Shown: positions 5,959 through 57,983 of the stretch, piece after piece
Layout: the number at the start of each line of letters is the position of its first letter
Position numbering within the stretch: the stretch's first letter is position 1
Translations under genes and position numbers: made by a program
NCBI GenBank assembly: GCA_963717465.1
Contig: OY970340.1
Span: 2,048,001 to 2,112,000, forward strand
Reading direction: 5' to 3'
From: Candidatus Bathyarchaeota archaeon
GTDB lineage: Archaea; Thermoproteota; Bathyarchaeia; Bathyarchaeales; Bathycorpusculaceae
Length of the DNA stretch: 64,000 nt
Notes under the pieces: model-generated
The model's input: only the letters and a program-made list of their open reading frames with translations
What the model was told of the DNA's origin: nothing
Databases searched by the model: none

Positions 5959-6534
5959 TTAAATCGTGGTTTTTCTTTGTTTAAGATAGTCTATTTTTGC
6001 ATCTGGTGGAAGGAACAGTGATTCAATGTTTCTTAGCGAGAATGGTTTGAGAACGAGGGCTTCTTTGTCTGTGGTAATATTGAAATTTTGCATGCTCCAT
6101 GTGCGACTTTTCTGTTCGCCTCTTAGTCTTCTGAGGAATGACAAGTAGCTTTCATAGTTTTTGTGAACAGATATCATCATTATGTTTGCGTCCAAGCCTT
6201 GTCCTTCCATGCAGCAGAGTATTTCTGGTTGTTCACCCATCCATTTCCGAGCTTTTGATATTTGTTCCTGTGTTAGCGGCGCGGCAGGCGCACCGAATGA
6301 GAGTGCAATAATCTCTATGCCAAGCTTGTTGAAATTGGGTATCACTGTATACTCGTTTATGTAACCTTCTTGTTCTATCTCTTTCCTTCGTCTGGACGCT
6401 GAAGTGTTGGTTATTCCTAAATGTCTGGCAAGTTCTCTGTCGCTGCTTGCCCCTGCCTTTATTAGAGCCGCAAGAAACCTCAACTTTTCAAGAATTTTTT
6501 GGTTTTGACGGTTCTGTCTTGATCTTTCCGTCAC
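5959..6534 (-). CDS. Lrp/AsnC family transcriptional regulator
   Basis: HTH SDRELARHLGITNTSASRRR followed by EGYINEYTVIPNFNKLG; divergent from the Mo-enzyme gene. Confidence 0.85.
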   Translation of the reverse strand: MTERSRQNRQNQKILEKLRFLAALIKAGASSDRELARHLGITNTSASRRRKEIEQEGYINEYTVIPNFNKLGIEIIALSFGAPAAPLTQEQISKARKWMGEQPEILCCMEGQGLDANIMMISVHKNYESYLSFLRRLRGEQKSRTWSMQNFNITTDKEALVLKPFSLRNIESLFLPPDAKIDYLKQRKTTI

Positions 6535-6719
6535 TCTTCCTCACAGCTTAATTTATAGGACAATATACTATTAAAACTTGGCAATCTATTAAATCTTTTA
6601 CATATGTTCTAATAGTGTTGAAAAATTGGTTTTTTTGTTTAGATATATAGATGTAAATGCAACCAAGTTTTATTAATCGATAGTCACATGTATCCAATCT
6701 TAGCTATAGAGTAAATAAA

Positions 6720-9050
6720 ATGGGAGATAGAATGATGAGTGAACAAATTGTAGACCCTAAAAGTTTCGATGGACTTCACAGATGCATATGCGGTTTTTGC
6801 AGTACCGGATCTTGTCAATTGCTTGAAACAGTTCAAAACGGTAAAATCGTTAAGGTTGAACCTGACTGGGAAAGCCCATTTAACCCTGGGCCGTACTGTC
6901 AGAAGTGGAAGTACAGTCTAGAATACATTTACAACAAGGACAGGCCAATGTACCCAATGAAGCGCATTGGCAAGCGTGGCGAAGGCAAATGGCAAATAAT
7001 ATCCTGGGAGCAGGCGGTAAGCGAAATAGGCGCTAAGATGAAGGAAATCATTGCAAAGTATGGTGCTGAAACTACTTGTGGTTTCTGGGGTACAGGTCGA
7101 GCCGCAAACTTAGGTTTAGGGCTTGCTAGTTATTTTGTTTTGATTGGCAGTCCGAATTTTGGTTCGATTGCGGCTCAGACATGAGCTGGACCCACGAACC
7201 AGGCCCTAGGATTGGGTTATGGCGTGGGAATTACGTATGCAATGATTATCCCTGGCAAGACGAAAGGTATCTTTGTTGCTGGTACGAACCCGAGTGAGTC
7301 TTGGACTTATTCTTGGCCTGCTTTCGTTGCGGGATTGGAGGCTGGCACGAAAATGCTCTGTATTGATCCGCGATTCAGTGAGACTGCGAGGCTTTCTGAA
7401 AAATGGTTGGCGATTAGACCTGGGACTGATGCTGCATTGTTTATGGCAATGATAAACGTGCTCATTGAAGAGGACCTGTATGATCATGATTTTGTGGAGA
7501 AATGGACTTTTGGATTTGACAAGCTCAAGGAACGGGCTAAGCAGTATACGCCTGAGAAGGCTGCAGAGATAACTTGGATTCCAGCTGAGAAGATCAGGGA
7601 AGCAGCAAGGTTCATAGCGAAGAACAGTCCATGCACTTTCCCGTTTGCCTACGCGATTGAATCATCAGGCAGGAACTCTTTAAGCAACGTTCGCGCAAAA
7701 TACATGATGCCCGCGTTAACCGGCAACATCGATATTGAAGGCGGCGAATACCTACACGCAAAACCGAAATTTCTTGGCGGCACAATGGCAATGCACGATA
7801 TAGCTGCGTCAGCAGATGTTGATCAAATGATGAAGCAGGTTGGATTGGATAAGTATAGAGCGTTGAACTTTACGATTGCTCCCTTGATTAATCAGGCAGC
7901 TGATGCAAAAGGATACTGGACAGGTGGTGCTCACTCCTCTGGAACAAGAGGTCCAAACTTCCCGACCTTTACAGATACAATGGTATCAGAGAAGCCCTAT
8001 CCAATCAAAGCTATGATTTCCGGTGAAGTAGGTCCAATGCGGAATTATCCAAACATCAAGAAAGTCTATGAAGGTTTGAAGAAGCTTGAACTGTTCGTTT
8101 ACATTGAATGCGCTCAAATGACGCCTGAAGCAATGATCGCAGATTATGTTTTGCCTGGCACTAGTCAATTTGAGAGAAATTCCGGCTACGCGACTGTTTC
8201 ATGTCAAGGTGAAATTGAGTTTGAGATCGCTGGTGATCGTGCCGTTGCTAGCAAAATACCTGGACTATGGGATCTAAGAGATGATAGCATAATATACCGT
8301 GATCTCGCAGTTGCAACACTTGGAAACGAAAAAGTTGATAAAGTTTGGCCTTGGAAGACTTTAGAAGAGTTTCAGGACATTTTCTATGAGCCTGCTGGTT
8401 GGACGCGCAAACAGGTGATTGAGGAATGGAAGGGTGTTCCGCCGTATGAGCCGAAATTCAAGAAGTACGAGGAGATTGATCCTGAGACTGGACAGATTAG
8501 GGGCTTTGGTACTCCTGAGGGTAAAGTTGCTTTCTACTCTACGATTTTGGAGCAGCTTGATTATGATCCGTTGCCGTATTATCAGGAATGTGCTTGGACG
8601 CCAATCAGTGCACCTGACATCGCAAAAGACTTTCCGTTGATCATGTGTAGTGGTGCCAGATTCCAGGAAGCTCACCATGGCGAACTACGACATATTAGCT
8701 TGATGCGTCATTTGCGGCCTTTTCCACGTGTAAAAATGCATCCTTTGACAGCGCGTAATATGGGTATTGGTGATGGCGAGTGGGTTTACATTGAGACTCC
8801 TGTTGGCAGGTGCATGCAGCAAGTGCGGTACGATTTCGGCGTTAATCCGAAGGTTGTTTCGCCTGAGCATGGTTGGTGGCGTCCAGAATTGCCCGGTGAG
8901 GAGCCATTCTTGCATGGATGGACTGACTGGAACATTGACGTTACAATCCCGAACGATGCAGAACAACTTAGCCCAGAACTTGGAGCCTGGTGCTTCAAAG
9001 CGGCGCTCGCAAAAGTGTACTCAGCCAACATTGGACCAATGGGACCATAA
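6720..9050 (+). CDS. Molybdopterin (Mo/W-bisPGD) oxidoreductase, acetylene-hydratase-like, with in-frame UGA (candidate selenocysteine) at 7182-7184
   Basis: ORFs 6720-7184 and 7212-9050 are in the same frame, separated only by one TGA; N-terminal CxxCx4C..C 4Fe-4S motif; IDPR, RPGTDAAL, C-terminal molybdopterin-dinucleotide domain; TGA lies in GSPNFGSIAAQT* matching GSPN...C of acetylene hydratase. Confidence 0.88.
7191..7228 (+). promoter_or_regulatory. Candidate bacterial-type SECIS hairpin
   Basis: CCCACG/CGTGGG, CCA/TGG and GGCCC/GGGTT stems with a TAGGATT apical region, starting after a 6-nt spacer 3' of the UGA. Confidence 0.5.
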
Positions 9051-9169
9051 ATTACGAGAAAATAGATCTTTCCTCTTTTCTTTTTTTTTTAAATCTCACG
9101 GCTTTATCAAATATTCTGATTTGATTTAATCATCACATTTAAAAGGACATAATAAACAAAAAGGGGTTC

Positions 9170-9532
9170 ATGAAAGCTAAAATAGTGAAGGCTAACTCGT
9201 TAAAGGAAACATTAATACGTGAAAACTGTGGTGTAGCCGAGAATTATCGTTCAAGAACTGTTTCCATCGCTCAAGCTCGAGTAAAACCTGGTAAAACAAC
9301 AGTTGCTCATCATCTTAAGGATGTTGAAGAAATTTATTTAATCATACAAGGCACAGGCAAAGTTTTTGTTGGCGACCTAACGCCTACTGAAATTGGAGTC
9401 GGCGATGTTGTTGTTATTCCGCCAAATGTCTCCCAGAAAATAGCAAACGTTGGCAAAACTGACCTAATTTTCAGCTGCATCTGCACTCCCTGTTTCACAG
9501 CAGAATGCTACGTGGATGAAGAAAAGCAATAG
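9170..9532 (+). CDS. Cupin domain protein
   Basis: HHLKDVEEIYLIIQGTG and GDVVVIPP cupin motifs. Confidence 0.88.
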   Translation: MKAKIVKANSLKETLIRENCGVAENYRSRTVSIAQARVKPGKTTVAHHLKDVEEIYLIIQGTGKVFVGDLTPTEIGVGDVVVIPPNVSQKIANVGKTDLIFSCICTPCFTAECYVDEEKQ

Positions 9533-10067: not shown

Positions 10068-12019
10068 ATGCAGTTTAAGTTAACAGCGCCCTACACGGCT
10101 TCACCGGGGCAAGAGGAAGCCGTCAAAAAGCTTGTCACTAACTTGGCCCACAAAGATAAGCAGACGCTCTTGGGCATCACAGGCAGCGGCAAAACCTTTG
10201 TTATGGCGAATTTAATTAATAAACTGCAAAAGCCCACCTTGATCATAGCTCATAATAAGATTTTAGCCGCCCAATTGTATGGTGAACTCAAAGAGCTTTT
10301 TCCTGAAAACCGTGTTGAATATTTTATTTCTTTTTATGATTATTACCAGCCTGAATCCTACATGCCTACAACAGATACGTACATTGAGAAAGATTCAGAT
10401 GTAAATGAACAGATTGAGAAAATGCGAATGCATGCTGTTTCAAGCATTGTCAGCCGTAACGACACGATTATTGTGGCAAGCATCAGTTGCATTTACAGTC
10501 TTGGTAACCCGGAAGATTTCAAAAGCCTAGCAGTCGAGTTAACTGTTGATAAACAATTTACTCGACAAGAGTTAATTCATGCTTTAGTTGATATGCAGTA
10601 TGAGCGTAACGATATGGCACTTGAACCGGGCAGGTTTCGAGTCCGCGGAGACGTGATAGATGTTGTTCCCGCCTACGAGAATGACATTTTGCGCGTAGAG
10701 TTGAATGGAAATAGAATTTGCAAAATTAAAGAAGTTGATCATTTAACTGGAAACGTAAAAGTGACTCTCGACAGAACCACACTTTACCCAGCAAGGCAAT
10801 ATGTAGTCCCTGAGGAAAAGCATGCACTTGCGCTTGAGCATATACAGCAAGAGTTGGATCAGCGGTTGCTTGAGCTTCCGCCTTTTGAAGCGCACAGGCT
10901 TAAGCAGAGGACAAATTATGATTTAGAGATGATTACGGGAAATTGGTTTCTGTTCTGGAATGGAAAATTACAGCAGGCATTTCGATGGGCGAAAACCAGG
11001 TGAGCCGCCGTTTACTTTGATGGATTATTTCCCAAAAGATTACTTGTTGATTATTGATGAGAGTCATCAGACAATTCCGCAATCAAGAGCCATGTACAAC
11101 GGTGACTATGCAAGGAAAAAGAACCTTGTGGATTTCGGCTTTAGACTGCCAAGCGCTATCGATAACAGGCCTTTAAAGTTTGAAGAGTTTGAGAAGAAAA
11201 TGGGCAAAACCCTTTTTGTATCTGCAACGCCTGCTGAGTATGAGTTGGAAAAAAGTGGTCCCGCCGGTGGAATTGATTACCCGGCCAACTGGTTTGCTTG
11301 ATCCAGAGATTGAACTTCACCCGATTGAAGGTCAAATGAAGCATTTGATGCTTGAAGCTAAGAAGACTATTGAGCGTGGAGACCGCATTTTAGTTACTAC
11401 GCTAACTAAGAGGATGGCTGAGGATTTAGCGGATTACCTTGCTAAAGAAGGCTTTCGTGTAAGGTACATGCATTCGGAAATTGAAAGTTTAGACCGTATA
11501 GAACTTGTGCGTCAACTAAGAGTAGGCGAATTCGATATTTTAGTGGGAATAAACTTGCTGCGTGAAGGTCTGGACATTCCAGAAGTTGCATCCATCTTCA
11601 TCTTAGACGCAGATAAAGAAGGCTTCTTACGAGACGAGCGAAGTTTAATTCAAACTATCGGGCGGGCTGCAAGAAACGTTAATGGAAAAGTATTCCTTTA
11701 TGGTGACGTTAAAACTCAGTCGATTAAGCGTGCGATGGAAATAACAAATTACAGGCGTGCTTTCCAAATGCGGTACAATAAAGTGCACAATATAACGCCT
11801 AAGACAATCGTAAAAGGTGTTTCTCATAAGGAAGGAGTAATCAAGGGTGCGAAACATTTGCCGAAGTCAGATATTCAAAGGCAAATAATCGAGTTTGACG
11901 CGCAAATGAGAGAGGCTGCTGAGAGACTGGATTTTGAGAAGGCTATTGAATTAAGAGATACGATCGCCATGTTGACTAAGTCGTTGTCTCAGAATGCGAG
12001 AATTGAGCAGTTGACATAG
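10068..12019 (+). CDS. uvrB: Excinuclease ABC subunit B (two frameshifts, probably sequencing indels)
   Basis: [26 protein letters not shown] and C-terminal UVR domain across ORFs 10068-11003, 10960-11301, 11180-12019. Confidence 0.95.
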
Positions 12020-12097
12020 GAAAATAACTGGTTTGATGCAAAAAGATACAAAAGCATAAATTAAAAGGTAGTATCTTGCGAAAGGCAGAAGGGAAAA

Positions 12098-14996
12098 TTG
12101 AGCGTCAATCATAAGAGATAATATTACAATTAAGGGCGCTCGGGAACATAATTTAAAAAATATTGATGTTGAGTTGCCCAGAAACAAGTTAATAGTGATT
12201 ACTGGGCTTTCAGGCTCAGGAAAATCCACTCTTGCATTTGACACAATTTATGCGGAGGGACAAAGGAGATACGTTGAAAGCTTATCCGCTTATGCAAGGC
12301 AGTTTTTAGGTTTAATGGATAAGCCCGATGTTGACTCTATTGAAGGTTTATCTCCAGCTATTTCAATTGAACAAAAAAGCACAAGCAAAAATCCTCGTTC
12401 AACAGTGGGCACAGTCACAGAAATTTATGATTATTTGCGACTTCTCTACGCGCGAATTGGAGTCCATCATTGTCCAAAATGTGGCAGTTCAATTCACCCT
12501 CAAAGCCCGGAAAACATCACAAGCCTTGTAATGTCTGAGAAAGGTAAAACTATGATCTTTTTAGCGCCAGTAATCAGGGGCATGAAAGGAACGCACGAGC
12601 AGGTTTTCGACGATTTAAAAAAGCAAGGATACACAAAAATCAGAGTGGACCAGAAAATTTACGATTCCGACTCAATCAAGGATGAAGTGAAACTGGTCCG
12701 CTATGAAAAGCATTGGATAGAAGCAGTCATAGACACGGTTAAGAATTGATGATGAAGAACGTTCGCGAATTGCTGAGGCAGTAGAGCAAGCGCTTCAATT
12801 CGGCAAAGGAACAATGATTGTTATAGACGCCGAGAACACGGATGCAAACAAAAAAAGAGAGCTCGAACGATTCGAAGCTGAAACAATCTACAGTACCTTT
12901 GGTGCTTGTCCCAATCATCCAGAAATTGTTTTTGAAAGCTTAGAGCCGCGAATGTTCTCGTTTAACTCGCCTTTTGGTGCATGCCCAAGTTGTCACGGTC
13001 TTGGGGAAATAATGGAGATAGCTGAAGACCTTGTGATTCCTGATAAGTCAAAATCCATAATGGATGGTGCGTTAGAAGTCTATGGCAAAATGGAGTTAAG
13101 TTGGCGTGCACAGCAGCTTGCAATGGTGGGCAAAAAACATGATTTTGACGTTTTCACTCCAATCGCTGACTTTTCTGAGAAGCAACTGCATGTTCTATTG
13201 TACGGTGATGCAGAGCCAATAAATGGCAGTTGGTCTAATGGCGCTAACATGTGGATGCGCAATGGTTGGGAAGGCATTATGCCCCAAACTATGCGGCTTT
13301 ATCGCCAAACAGAATAGTGAATGGAGAAAAGAAGACATTGAGAAATTTATGATTTATAAACCCTGCAATGTGTGTCAGGGCAAAAGGCTTCAGCCAGTGG
13401 TTCTTGCCGTTCGAGTATTAGACAAAAGCATAATCGACGTGACTGACCTTTCAATTGACGAGGCAGTTAACTTTTTCCATAATTTACCAGAGAAACTAAG
13501 CGAGAAGGATATGGCGATTGCCAAACAGGTGCTTAAGGAAATTAATGAGCGATTAGGCTTCCTTAAAAATGTAGGGTTAGGCTATCTCTCGCTTTCCAGA
13601 GCCGCAAGAACGCTCTCAGGCGGAGAAGCTCAACGTATCCGTTTAGCTACACAAATCGGCAGCAACCTAATGGGCGTTCTCTACATTTTAGATGAGCCAA
13701 GCATTGGCTTGCATCAAAGAGATAATGCTAAATTAATCGCTACACTCCGCAAGTTACGTGATCTTGGGAACACTTTGATAGTGGTTGAGCACGACGAGGA
13801 AACTATTCGAAGTGCAGATTACATTGTGGATATGGGTCCAGGAGCTGGAATTCATGGAGGTCACGTTGTTGCTGAGGGAGCGCCATGGCAAATTGAGAAG
13901 AACAAGAAGAGCCTTACGGGGAAGTATCTTTGTGGCGAATTAAAAATTGAGGTTCCTTCACAGAGAAGAAAAATCCTTGATTACATAACGGTTTCTGGTG
14001 CTCAGGAAAATAACCTGAAGAATCTTACGGTTAAGCTTCCGTTAGGCGTTCTATGCGGTGTAACTGGTGTTTCAGGTTCAGGGAAGAGCACGCTTATGAA
14101 CCAGACAGTTATGCCTGCTTTAAGGCAAAAGTTTGGAGAACGCGTTGACAAAGTAGGAAGGCACAGTCAAATTGATATTCCTCGATTGGTAAGGAACGTT
14201 ATAGTTATTGACCAAGATCCCATTGGCAGGACTCCGAGGAGTAATCCTGCAACTTACACGAAACTTTTCGATGAAATCAGGCGCATTTTTGCCTCAACAA
14301 AAGAAGCAAAAGCACGTGGATACAAGGAAGGTCGATTCTCGTTTAACGTTAAAGGTGGCAGATGCGAAACATGCAGCGGCGATGGCGTTTTACGGATTGA
14401 AATGAACTTTCTCCCAGATGTTTACGTGCAATGCAGCGAATGCAAGGGTAAACGCTACAACAAGGAAACCCTTAGCATCCTCTACAAGGGCAAGAACATC
14501 GCTGAAGTGCTAGATATGACTGTGGAGGAGGCTGCAGTGTTCTTTGAGAATGTGCCCTTTATTTCAAGGAAACTTCAGACGTTGCTTGATGTTGGGTTAG
14601 GTTACATTAAGCTTGGGCAGAGTTCAACAACGCTTTCTGGAGGAGAAAGCCAGCGTATCAAGATCACTCGTGAACTTAGCAAGAACAAGTCGGGGCACGT
14701 AGTTTACATGTTGGATGAGCCTACAACGGGGCTTCATTTTGATGATACCAAGCGGCTTATTGCGGTTTTGAATCGGCTTGTAGAAAAAGGAAACACTGTT
14801 TACGTTATCGAGCACAATTTGGATGTGGTTAAGAGTTGCGATTACCTTCTTGATTTGGGACCTGAAGGTGGTCTGGCAGGAGGAGAAATTCTTGCCAGCT
14901 GGGACGCCTGAAGAAGTCGCTGAAAACTCGAACTCATACACAGGGAAATTCCTGAAAAAAATGCTGACTAAACAGGCAATGGCGATTCAACAGTGA
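12098..14996 (+). CDS. uvrA: Excinuclease ABC subunit A (several frameshifts, probably sequencing indels)
   Basis: [18 protein letters not shown], zinc fingers, LSGGEAQR, second ABC cassette [16 protein letters not shown]; final TGA overlaps the uvrC GTG. Confidence 0.95.
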
Positions 14997-56958: not shown

Positions 56959-56964
56959 ACATAA

Positions 56965-57039
56965 TGGACAAGGGGGGATTTGAACCCCCGACCTCTACAA
57001 TGCCAATGTAGCGTTCATACCAAACTGGACTACTTGCCC
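56965..57039 (-). tRNA. tRNA-Ala(GGC), intact, element-borne
   Basis: GGGCAAG/CTTGTCC acceptor with G3:U70, CTACA-TTGGCAT-TGTAG anticodon arm, GGGGG-TTCAAAT-CCCCC T arm. Confidence 0.93.
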
Positions 57040-57333
57040 ATATTTTTTAGTTCTACTCCGTATTACCCTTTAAAGGTTACTAAACAGAAAAGCAAAATAA
57101 AAAAAGGAAAAATAATTATTTATCAACCACCTAAAACACAAAGACAATTAATCAAGCAATAAAAAGCACGGAACAGGTGAACATGCGCTATCACACTTTT
57201 TGCCCACTAAATCACAGTCATATTTCAGGAAAACAGAAAACTAGATTATACACTTAAATGTAAAATACGGGTAAAATTAACAAATCATTCGACCGACCAC
57301 CCAACAATAGAGTTAGCCATTGGTCAATGAATC

Positions 57334-57905: not shown

Positions 57906-57983
57906 CGACAGGTTGATCAGTCTGGTACGATCGCCACGTTGGCATCGTGGAGGCCGCGGGTTCAAATTCCGCCCCGTCCACCA
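57906..57983 (+). pseudogene. 3' part of disrupted host tRNA-Ala(GGC) (attR)
   Basis: Complete D, anticodon (CCACG-TTGGCAT-CGTGG) and T arms plus ACCA, but the local 5' strand CGACAGG has two mismatches and lacks G3. Confidence 0.8.

Follow-up and report, generated by a model that had tools for sequence, protein, structure and literature searches.

How is an in-frame UGA read as selenocysteine (Sec) in an archaeon in which a hairpin follows this codon directly, inside the coding region? This question is raised by a gene for a molybdopterin enzyme in a stretch of 64,000 nucleotides (nt) from a Candidatus Bathyarchaeota archaeon (assembly GCA_963717465.1, contig OY970340.1, positions 2,048,001 to 2,112,000 of the forward strand). 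We call this stretch the window, and coordinates refer to it unless they carry the prefix C1, which denotes positions on the whole contig. The sections on archaeal Sec insertion sequence (SECIS) elements in reviews up to 2026 place these elements in untranslated regions (UTRs) and describe placement in the coding region for bacteria only (PMC13188914, PMC11227280, PMC9499178). Our sequence analysis indicates, with a probability of about 0.7, that the hairpin starting 6 nt after the UGA is a cis-acting signal for Sec recoding and the working equivalent of a SECIS. The best reading is an element positioned in bacterial style and read by an archaeal machinery. An earlier note on this DNA had described a bacterial-style SECIS-like hairpin in an archaeon. 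The position of the element, its SECIS-like behavior, and the lack of a SECIS in the UTR stood up in our analysis, whereas the two explanations offered for it, a bacterial-type decoding system or a recent import of the gene from bacteria, did not. The features concerned are the following.

6720..9050, plus strand: selenoprotein gene for a predicted cytoplasmic molybdopterin enzyme of 776 amino acids (dimethyl sulfoxide reductase family) with Sec as residue 155 (Pfam, 2e7z, reading frame)
7182..7184, plus strand: in-frame UGA, predicted selenocysteine U155 at the metal-ligand position (column alignment)
7185..7190, plus strand: unpaired spacer of 6 nt between UGA and hairpin (RNAfold; sequence not conserved across gene families)
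7191..7228, plus strand: coding-region hairpin of 38 nt, candidate SECIS (RNAfold, paralogs, rank within the gene, synonymous sites)
9051..9169, plus strand: 3' flank without SECIS, with a T10 run at 9081-9090 (G+C 0.32, best 60-nt segment -7.9 kcal/mol)

The gene (hereafter Mo enzyme gene) forms one reading frame that is broken by the single TGA and is open on both sides of it. Read through this codon, the product matched PF04879, PF00384, and PF01568 of Pfam, corresponding to Fe4S4, molybdopterin, and dinucleotide-binding domains, and scored under the cut-off for all named subfamilies of NCBIfam. The best solved relative was acetylene hydratase (2e7z; E 1.6e-104), with residues 22-767 aligned, and from these matches the enzyme is assigned to an acetylene-hydratase-like clade. 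The TGA aligned with the Cys of 'YMCIGNT' in 2e7z, which we take to be the tungsten ligand Cys141. A Cys occupied this column in all 17 bacterial homologs whose alignment spans it (of 80 loci retrieved, 17 could be aligned with the short query fragment), and it was invariant in 9 full-length homologs with 39-43% identity. Since the TGA aligns with the ligand Cys of the homologs, the UGA stands for a metal-ligand residue, as expected for Sec; an in-frame UGA at the column of a catalytic Cys is thus combined with coding conservation on both sides. In the genome (3.05 Mb in one contig, rated 88% complete), TGA is otherwise a normal stop codon that ends 471 of 1797 open reading frames of at least 200 amino acids. 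The G+C content of the Mo enzyme gene is that of its surroundings. Gene callers split the gene, and its database entries are fragments of about 600 amino acids.

The 38-nt hairpin claimed in the earlier note was recovered by RNAfold at 7191-7228 with a minimum free energy of -19.6 kcal/mol (all folding energies below are in this unit). Its basal stem CCCACG/CGUGGG joins 7191-7196 with 7223-7228, its middle stem CCA/UGG joins 7199-7201 with 7220-7222, and its upper stem GCCC/GGGU joins 7203-7206 with 7214-7217. The loop UAGGAUU of 7 nt (7207-7213), with G at loop positions 3-4, lies 23-29 nt past the A of the UGA, as stated in the earlier note. When dinucleotides of the same 59 nt were shuffled, the window copy reached z = -1.54, and 12 of 200 shuffles folded equally well. 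This control was judged too weak, and codon resampling, ranking within the gene, covariation among paralogs, and synonymous-site conservation were used instead. Resampling of synonymous codons, a check proposed beforehand, showed the window hairpin to be more stable than its controls (z -2.25; -1.5 to -3.7 across the 11 paralogs described below). These controls already folded to about -12.5 for the window copy and to -12 to -14 overall, because the peptide GPT..GLGYGVG is rich in G+C-rich codons. Within its own gene the hairpin ranked 1 among 748 segments of 42 nt (gene mean -6.7, standard deviation (sd) 3.0).

Eleven copies of the Mo enzyme gene (p1-p11) with 43-94% identity are present in the genome, namely the window copy at C1:2054720-2057047 (window 6720-9047) and 10 further loci. 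Eight paralogs are in one frame, while three (p8, p9, and p10) are also frameshifted. The TGA is found at the same ligand column in 11 out of 11 copies, and all of them carry the same hairpin, which starts 9-10 nt from the U of the UGA. In the ungapped alignment of the 11 paralogs, 89% of the 154 cells that make up the 14 hairpin pairs were paired, compared to 23-47% after the 3' partners had been slid by 1-3 columns. Both sides have changed among the paralogs in 5 of the 14 pairs, and none of 500 column shuffles matched the observed pairing or covariation score. Without aid, RNAalifold predicted the basal and upper stems. Synonymous changes were found to compensate each other where the Leu codons CUA/UUG are replaced by UUA/UUA, turning C:G into U:A; in p11 the synonymous change of Val GUG to GUU repairs the basal stem in a shifted register. 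The upper stems of p7, p10, and p11 differ yet still pair, and the peptides of p7 and p10 differ at this place. In p1 and p2 only, an alternative stem GGUUCG/CGAACC (window 7161-7202, plus strand) would enclose the UGA itself; with -19.5 at offset -21 it is near the hairpin in stability and competes with the basal stem of the latter.

The region from UGA+6 to UGA+47 was the most stable of about 746 segments of 42 nt in 7 of the 8 intact paralogs (gene mean about -6.5, sd about 3), and the p7 hairpin (-15.4) took rank 6 in its gene. Suppressed synonymous change is a classic mark of an RNA element that overlaps a coding region. Among 8 of the 11 paralogs (p2, p9, and p10 were left out), synonymous codon identity over the hairpin amounted to 0.77-0.79 compared to a gene mean of 0.526 (sd 0.075), which placed it at rank 1-2 of 711 segments. 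Judged from these alignments, the hairpin is a conserved RNA structure that has been selected at the RNA level.

The Mo enzyme family is rare outside this genome. No homologs were found in 40 relatives or, at E<=1e-80, in 119 genomes of the same genus, and the family seems to occur in only one further assembly, on contigs of 75-201 kb. A search for related loci with the Mo enzyme returned solely bacterial relatives of 28-40% identity, and the nearest outside relatives carry Cys and do not exceed 43% identity. Hence, a close Cys ortholog for a direct test does not exist among these 40 relatives and 119 genomes. Excess structure was not seen after the ligand codon of the 17 distant bacterial Cys homologs (mean z -0.11, range -1.86 to +1.38). 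Past the ligand, Cys homologs of 39-43% identity show no conservation of the peptide, which suggests that the peptide conservation of the Sec clade is itself imposed by the RNA. A degenerate DNA pattern of the hairpin matched the contig collection once, in a metagenome-assembled genome (MAG) of Verrucomicrobia, which corresponds to chance level. A Cys paralog of 33% identity (C1:1817834-1820047) adjoins the most divergent Sec copy (C1:1822102-1824357).

The same arrangement was found in a second gene of the genome that encodes an HdrA-MvhD fusion of 854 amino acids with two UGAs (U212 and U682). Each of these is followed by a hairpin that starts 6 nt later, and the five most stable of 840 segments of this gene are those after UGA1 (-26.0) and UGA2 (-22.2), with a gene mean of -6.1 (sd 3.8). 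The three hairpin types, one from the Mo enzyme and two from HdrA-MvhD, have no sequence in common, and the peptides that they encode are unrelated. Loop sequences in HdrA comprise AAGUAUA or GAGGUAAAU, and GUGCA or GAGCG. A genome-wide scan for TGAs with at least 10 stop-free codons before, at least 8 after, and a downstream G+C of at least 0.42 yielded 15,345 sites, of which 186 fold at or below -17 over +5..+55. Twelve of the 14 recognized Sec-UGAs were among these 186, with p7 and SelD outside. After a filter for coding potential, the list was led by HdrA U212 (-25.8), followed by a Mo paralog, HdrA-MvhD U682, and other Mo paralogs. The first paired base was at index 9 from the U of the UGA in 10 of the 14 Sec sites and at 7-10 in two more. 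By sequence comparison, the hairpin accompanies Sec-UGA codons of this genome in three contexts that are unrelated in sequence. Further hairpin-bearing TGAs at C1:1226997, 157563, 198360, 1217174, 2922522, and 1018587 do not resemble selenoproteins, and the one at 2430577 is by sequence the natural end of a BadF/BcrA-type ATPase; no Pfam search was made for these seven.

HdrA-MvhD allowed the comparison of UGA and Cys forms that the earlier note had asked for, on 44 loci of a sample from the class:

HdrA-MvhD site 1: UGA orthologs (n=5) mean -25.3, range -20.7 to -27.4; Cys orthologs (n=39) mean -9.3, range -2.7 to -17.7
HdrA-MvhD site 2: UGA orthologs (n=5) mean -22.4; Cys orthologs (n=39) mean about -13.3, range -7.7 to -20.8

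The hairpins are kept in the UGA orthologs and, as far as folding predicts, lost in the Cys orthologs, although at site 1 the Cys and UGA peptides are near-identical (IEGPKMVDV.RHPNI and IEGPRMVEV.RHPKV). A second HdrA set from the contig collection, comprising 10 UGA and 3-4 Cys loci that are labelled as or resemble Bathyarchaeia, gave the same picture; both sets derive from one species collection and probably overlap. L133 and L136 are contigs with a Bathyarchaeia-like Sec-HdrA (85-86% identical) under the bacterial MAG names Sulfotelmatobacter and Limnocylindrales, and these labels probably result from mis-binning. FlpD (PF02662) provided no wider sample of Sec-containing VhuD, as none of the 150 matches listed from 151 genomes of the class was interrupted by TGA.

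We found no SECIS in the untranslated regions. For 9050-9170 this agrees with the earlier claim: the G+C content is 32%, the best 60-nt segment folds to -7.9, no SECIS of Rfam is present, and the T10 run at 9081-9090 is, going by archaeal termination, probably a terminator. In 9 of the 11 paralogs (p1-p8 and p11) the 3' flanks are A+T-rich, with T runs within tens of bases of the stop codon and no common stem; p9 and p10 are broken inside the gene, and the sequence past their first stop is still coding and hence uninformative on the 3' flank. The 3' flank of HdrA-MvhD is likewise A+T-rich and unstructured, with T runs. A search of 6500-9400 with Rfam at E<=10 gave no SECIS family but only chance matches to snoRNAs, and the only matches in the whole window that passed the gathering thresholds were 3 tRNAs and a thiamine pyrophosphate (TPP) riboswitch. 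The GAA_A pattern of euryarchaeal SECIS elements, which we built ourselves from the description in PMC13188914, had no match in 10 selenoprotein genes or in their flanks (400 nt on the 5' side, 600 nt on the 3' side), and occurred at only 2 places genome-wide. An eukaryote-like SECIS was indicated neither by Rfam (6500-9400) nor by a stable stem in the 3' flank, although no dedicated kink-turn search was made on all genes. Folding of the flanks, Rfam, and the GAA_A pattern revealed no distal SECIS partner, although this does not prove its absence. No other segment of the selenoprotein genes was comparably stable or conserved.

The trans-acting machinery, as predicted from sequence, is archaeal and consists of tRNA-Sec, SepSecS, and a PSTK-aSelB fusion. 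tRNA-Sec was found twice (71.8 and 61.8 bits), and both copies are SeC(tca) in ARAGORN; SepSecS adjoins the first copy. Two SelB genes are present, each with an N-terminal PSTK (KTI12 family), EF-Tu-like domains, and aSelB domain III, and Methanococcus aSelB (4ac9) can be aligned with the SelB part over its whole length, domain IV included. SelD is located directly upstream of the first SelB gene. Relatives of the fused PSTK-aSelB with 67-90% identity and the same architecture are labelled Bathyarchaeota or Bathyarchaeia, as are the nearest HdrA loci. The best match to SelA (TIGR00474) in the genome scored 20.5 bits at a cut-off of 267.9, and bacterial SelB-wing_3 (PF09107) had no match in this genome, which is 88% complete. 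The second PSTK-aSelB (C1:2827363-2829585, minus strand) shows degenerate GTPase motifs (GHCKHGKT, EMPGN, SKID) and adjoins the second tRNA-Sec (C1:2829638-2829725, minus strand); like the Mo enzyme expansion, it is without a close counterpart elsewhere.

SelD is the exception among the selenoprotein genes. The gene at C1:951663-952679 has a UGA at the catalytic position (U14). This UGA was also found in four other genomes (G333, G345, G039, and G170) of the 251 sampled from the class, 24 of which contain SelD, while all 29 same-genus orthologs fetched, out of 81 genomes with a match, carry Cys. In this genome and two near relatives a hairpin at +6 was not found (-6.6 to -9.1 over +5..+55), and in two distant UGA genomes a stem begins at index 9. 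A longer stem-loop that starts about 23 nt downstream of the UGA folds equally well in Cys orthologs, with means over 93 nt of -29.6 for UGA (n=5) and -28.1 for TGC (n=28). Our search for a UGA-specific structure in SelD of this lineage found none. SelD therefore neither supports nor clearly contradicts a rule that a hairpin follows the UGA.

The element combines traits of several known systems. Bacterial SECIS elements, e.g. that of E. coli fdhF, are also stem-loops of the coding region directly 3' of the UGA. In both cases the apical loop contains purines or G and is about 25-31 nt away from the U. A bacterial apical loop is small, has G among its first positions, and may lie 16-37 nt from the UGA. 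The hairpins of the window gene, of the 11 paralogs, and of both HdrA-MvhD UGAs were found in the position directly 3' of the UGA, and the loop UAGGAUU fits the range by its distance and has G at positions 3-4, although it shares no motif with the HdrA loops. A comparable distance was also observed in bacterial HdrA of Thermincola (L150/L151), with a stem-loop at indices 20-37 after the UGA. Bacterial elements are recognized by SelB through its C-terminal winged-helix domains, and SelA produces the Sec. Our case differs in that neither of these was found, the spacer is fixed at 6 nt, and no SECIS model of Rfam was matched. The class of trans-acting factors (aSelB, PSTK, SepSecS, and archaeal tRNA-Sec) is shared with the euryarchaea Methanococcus and Methanopyrus. 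The fdhA SECIS of M. jannaschii is reported to lie in the 5' UTR. Euryarchaeal elements are otherwise located in the 3' UTR. According to PMC13188914, they contain an internal loop of the GAA_A type and, below the apical loop, three G/C pairs in a row. Our element differs in lying in the coding region, and the GAA_A pattern is absent from the 10 genes and their flanks.

With the Asgard lokiSECIS our system has in common the archaeal selenoproteins HdrA, VhuD, and SPS. According to the descriptions in PMC4989117 and PMC11227280, the lokiSECIS is located just past the stop codon, has a kink-turn-like core AUGA..GA, and serves Loki HdrA and VhuD as one signal, whereas in our genome a separate hairpin adjoins each UGA and the 3' flanks lack structure. 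Eukaryotic Sec redefinition elements (SREs), e.g. that of SEPN1, are also coding-region stem-loops a few nt after the UGA, with a spacing of 6 nt. An SRE only assists a 3'-UTR SECIS that is bound by SBP2, and a distal SECIS of this kind was not found here. The PSTK-aSelB fusion of this genome is the same as that known from Bathyarchaeota and one Archaeoglobus (Mukai et al., PMC8762117; PMC9499178), where it is discussed as a guard against cross-talk with SepCysS. The main text of PMC8762117 does not use the word SECIS and leaves the cis element undescribed; its Fig. 9B presents a Bathyarchaeota Sec gene cluster. Our search of open-access papers brought up neither an archaeal SECIS in a coding region nor Sec-containing acetylene-hydratase-like enzymes of Bathyarchaeia, although an earlier mention elsewhere, e.g. 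in the supplements of PMC8762117, is possible.

Four other explanations of the hairpin were considered. The strongest of them, which we nevertheless regard as unlikely, is that the hairpin is an accessory stimulator like the SRE, which slows the ribosome or hinders the release factor, while the true SECIS, to which aSelB is recruited, is located elsewhere and has escaped recognition. The 6-nt spacing is that of known recoding stimulators, the three hairpin types have no common loop motif, the SelD UGA manages without a proximal hairpin in three genomes so that another signal may exist, and aSelB has the usual archaeal domains only. However, the true SECIS required by this explanation found no place in the A+T-rich 3' flanks of 9 of the 11 paralogs (p1-p8, p11) and of HdrA-MvhD, with their T runs and lack of common structure, nor in the searches for the GAA_A pattern and for SECIS families of Rfam at E<=10, and no other segment of the genes is similarly conserved or stable. 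That the stem is a functionless by-product of a Gly/Pro-rich peptide and local G+C content could be argued from the codon-resampled controls of -12 to -14 and from the modest dinucleotide-shuffle z of -1.54, but it would leave unexplained the peak of synonymous-site conservation at the hairpin and the compensatory synonymous changes. It also conflicts with the HdrA-MvhD hairpins, which encode unrelated peptides at the same distance from the UGA and are missing in Cys orthologs with near-identical peptides, and with the lack of peptide conservation in Cys homologs; we give it very little credence.

It is equally improbable that the UGA is not read as Sec, so that the genes are split or dead or the UGA encodes another residue, and the hairpin serves another role. 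Gene callers do split the gene into database fragments of about 600 amino acids, and 3 of the 11 paralogs are also frameshifted, but in 11 of 11 copies, which diverge to as little as 43% identity, the TGA occupies the column of an essential metal-ligand Cys and is flanked by conserved coding sequence on either side. Moreover, the genome encodes a complete Sec machinery, and the remaining genes that TGA interrupts are those for HdrA, MvhD/VhuD, and SelD, classic selenoproteins of archaea, with the UGA at known Sec positions. Least credible of all is the pair of explanations offered by the earlier note, a bacterial Sec system with SelA and a winged-helix SelB or a recent import of a bacterial gene together with its SECIS. 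Position and shape of the hairpin do resemble bacterial SECIS elements, and distant relatives of the Mo enzyme family are mostly bacterial. The check for SelA and the winged-helix SelB found neither in the genome, which is 88% complete and instead holds tRNA-Sec, SepSecS, and two fusions of PSTK with an aSelB-like SelB. A recent import does not fit 11 diverged paralogs (43-94%) with native G+C content, outside relatives of at most 43% identity that carry Cys rather than UGA, or the same hairpin rule in an archaeal HdrA-MvhD.

Several points weigh against reading the hairpin as a SECIS equivalent. The window hairpin taken alone is not significant compared to dinucleotide shuffles (z -1.54). The peptide is Gly-rich, its resampled controls are stable, and z per copy is modest (-1.5 to -3.7). 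The hairpin of p7 is weak (-15.4, rank 6), and no loop motif is common to the three hairpin types. SelD, with a UGA that lacks an adjacent hairpin in this lineage, does not fit. Compared with Methanococcus aSelB, which works with elements of the 3' UTR, the predicted aSelB has no additional domain. Shared ancestry of paralogs and orthologs inflates the apparent independence in the covariation analysis and in the UGA-Cys contrasts, and the figures given above overstate it accordingly. This applies in particular to the UGA forms of HdrA, which by their sequences form a single tight clade (81-86% identical to the copy in this genome) and therefore represent few independent events.

If the hairpin acts as a Sec-recoding signal, its position suggests how it might work. 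While the UGA occupies the A site of the ribosome, a stem that starts 6 nt later would still be intact where the mRNA enters the small subunit. Bacterial SECIS elements, and recoding stimulators generally, have this geometry. The stem could tether the complex of PSTK-aSelB, GTP, and Sec-tRNA, either via aSelB domain IV or via the basic C-terminal part of the fused PSTK. Alternatively, it could pause the ribosome or hinder aRF1, so that the Sec complex would outcompete release. The evidence does not separate tethering from pausing. We know of no factor that has been established as the binder of archaeal SECIS elements. A bolder extension, which we put forward tentatively and consider rather doubtful, is that a third SECIS architecture exists in those Bathyarchaeia that carry the PSTK-aSelB fusion, in which each UGA has a local coding-region hairpin at a fixed spacing of 6 nt that is bound directly by the fused factor. 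If so, a bacterial cis layout would be joined to an archaeal/eukaryal trans machinery, local hairpins could represent the ancestral mode of Sec recoding with UTR elements added later, and the long-sought SECIS-binding activity of archaea could be tested with one protein and an RNA of 38 nt.

The window contains further features of note. Downstream of the Mo enzyme gene, within 10068-14911, uvrB is split into open reading frames at 10068-11003 and 11180-12019 (plus strand), and uvrA into open reading frames at 12174-12749, 12814-13317, and 13223-14911 (plus strand). These splits may reflect assembly errors, frameshifts, or pseudogenes. Taken with the three Mo paralogs that carry frameshifts, the split uvr genes suggest that the assembly contains indel errors or that gene decay is in progress. 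A match to the TPP riboswitch of Rfam in this archaeal genome (41234-41345, minus strand) scored 57.9 bits at a gathering threshold of 54.3. Two tRNA-Ala(GGC) genes are located on opposite strands within 1 kb (56964-57040, minus strand; 57906-57983, plus strand), the latter with a lower score in Rfam (43 compared to 61 bits).

Archaeal Sec biosynthesis combined with a hairpin behind the UGA, if our reading holds, breaks the rule that assigns SECIS placement to domains of life. It would also explain why selenoprotein finders limited to 3' UTRs miss such genes and why gene callers split them. With one fused factor and one short RNA, the system offers a compact and testable case of archaeal Sec decoding. 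The archaeal record, as given in the section concerned of a 2026 review, comprises 19 selenoprotein genes. Our analysis would add a family of selenoproteins to the archaea, with 11 copies of a Sec-containing acetylene-hydratase-like enzyme in a single genome, and it bears on the order in which local and distal SECIS elements originated.

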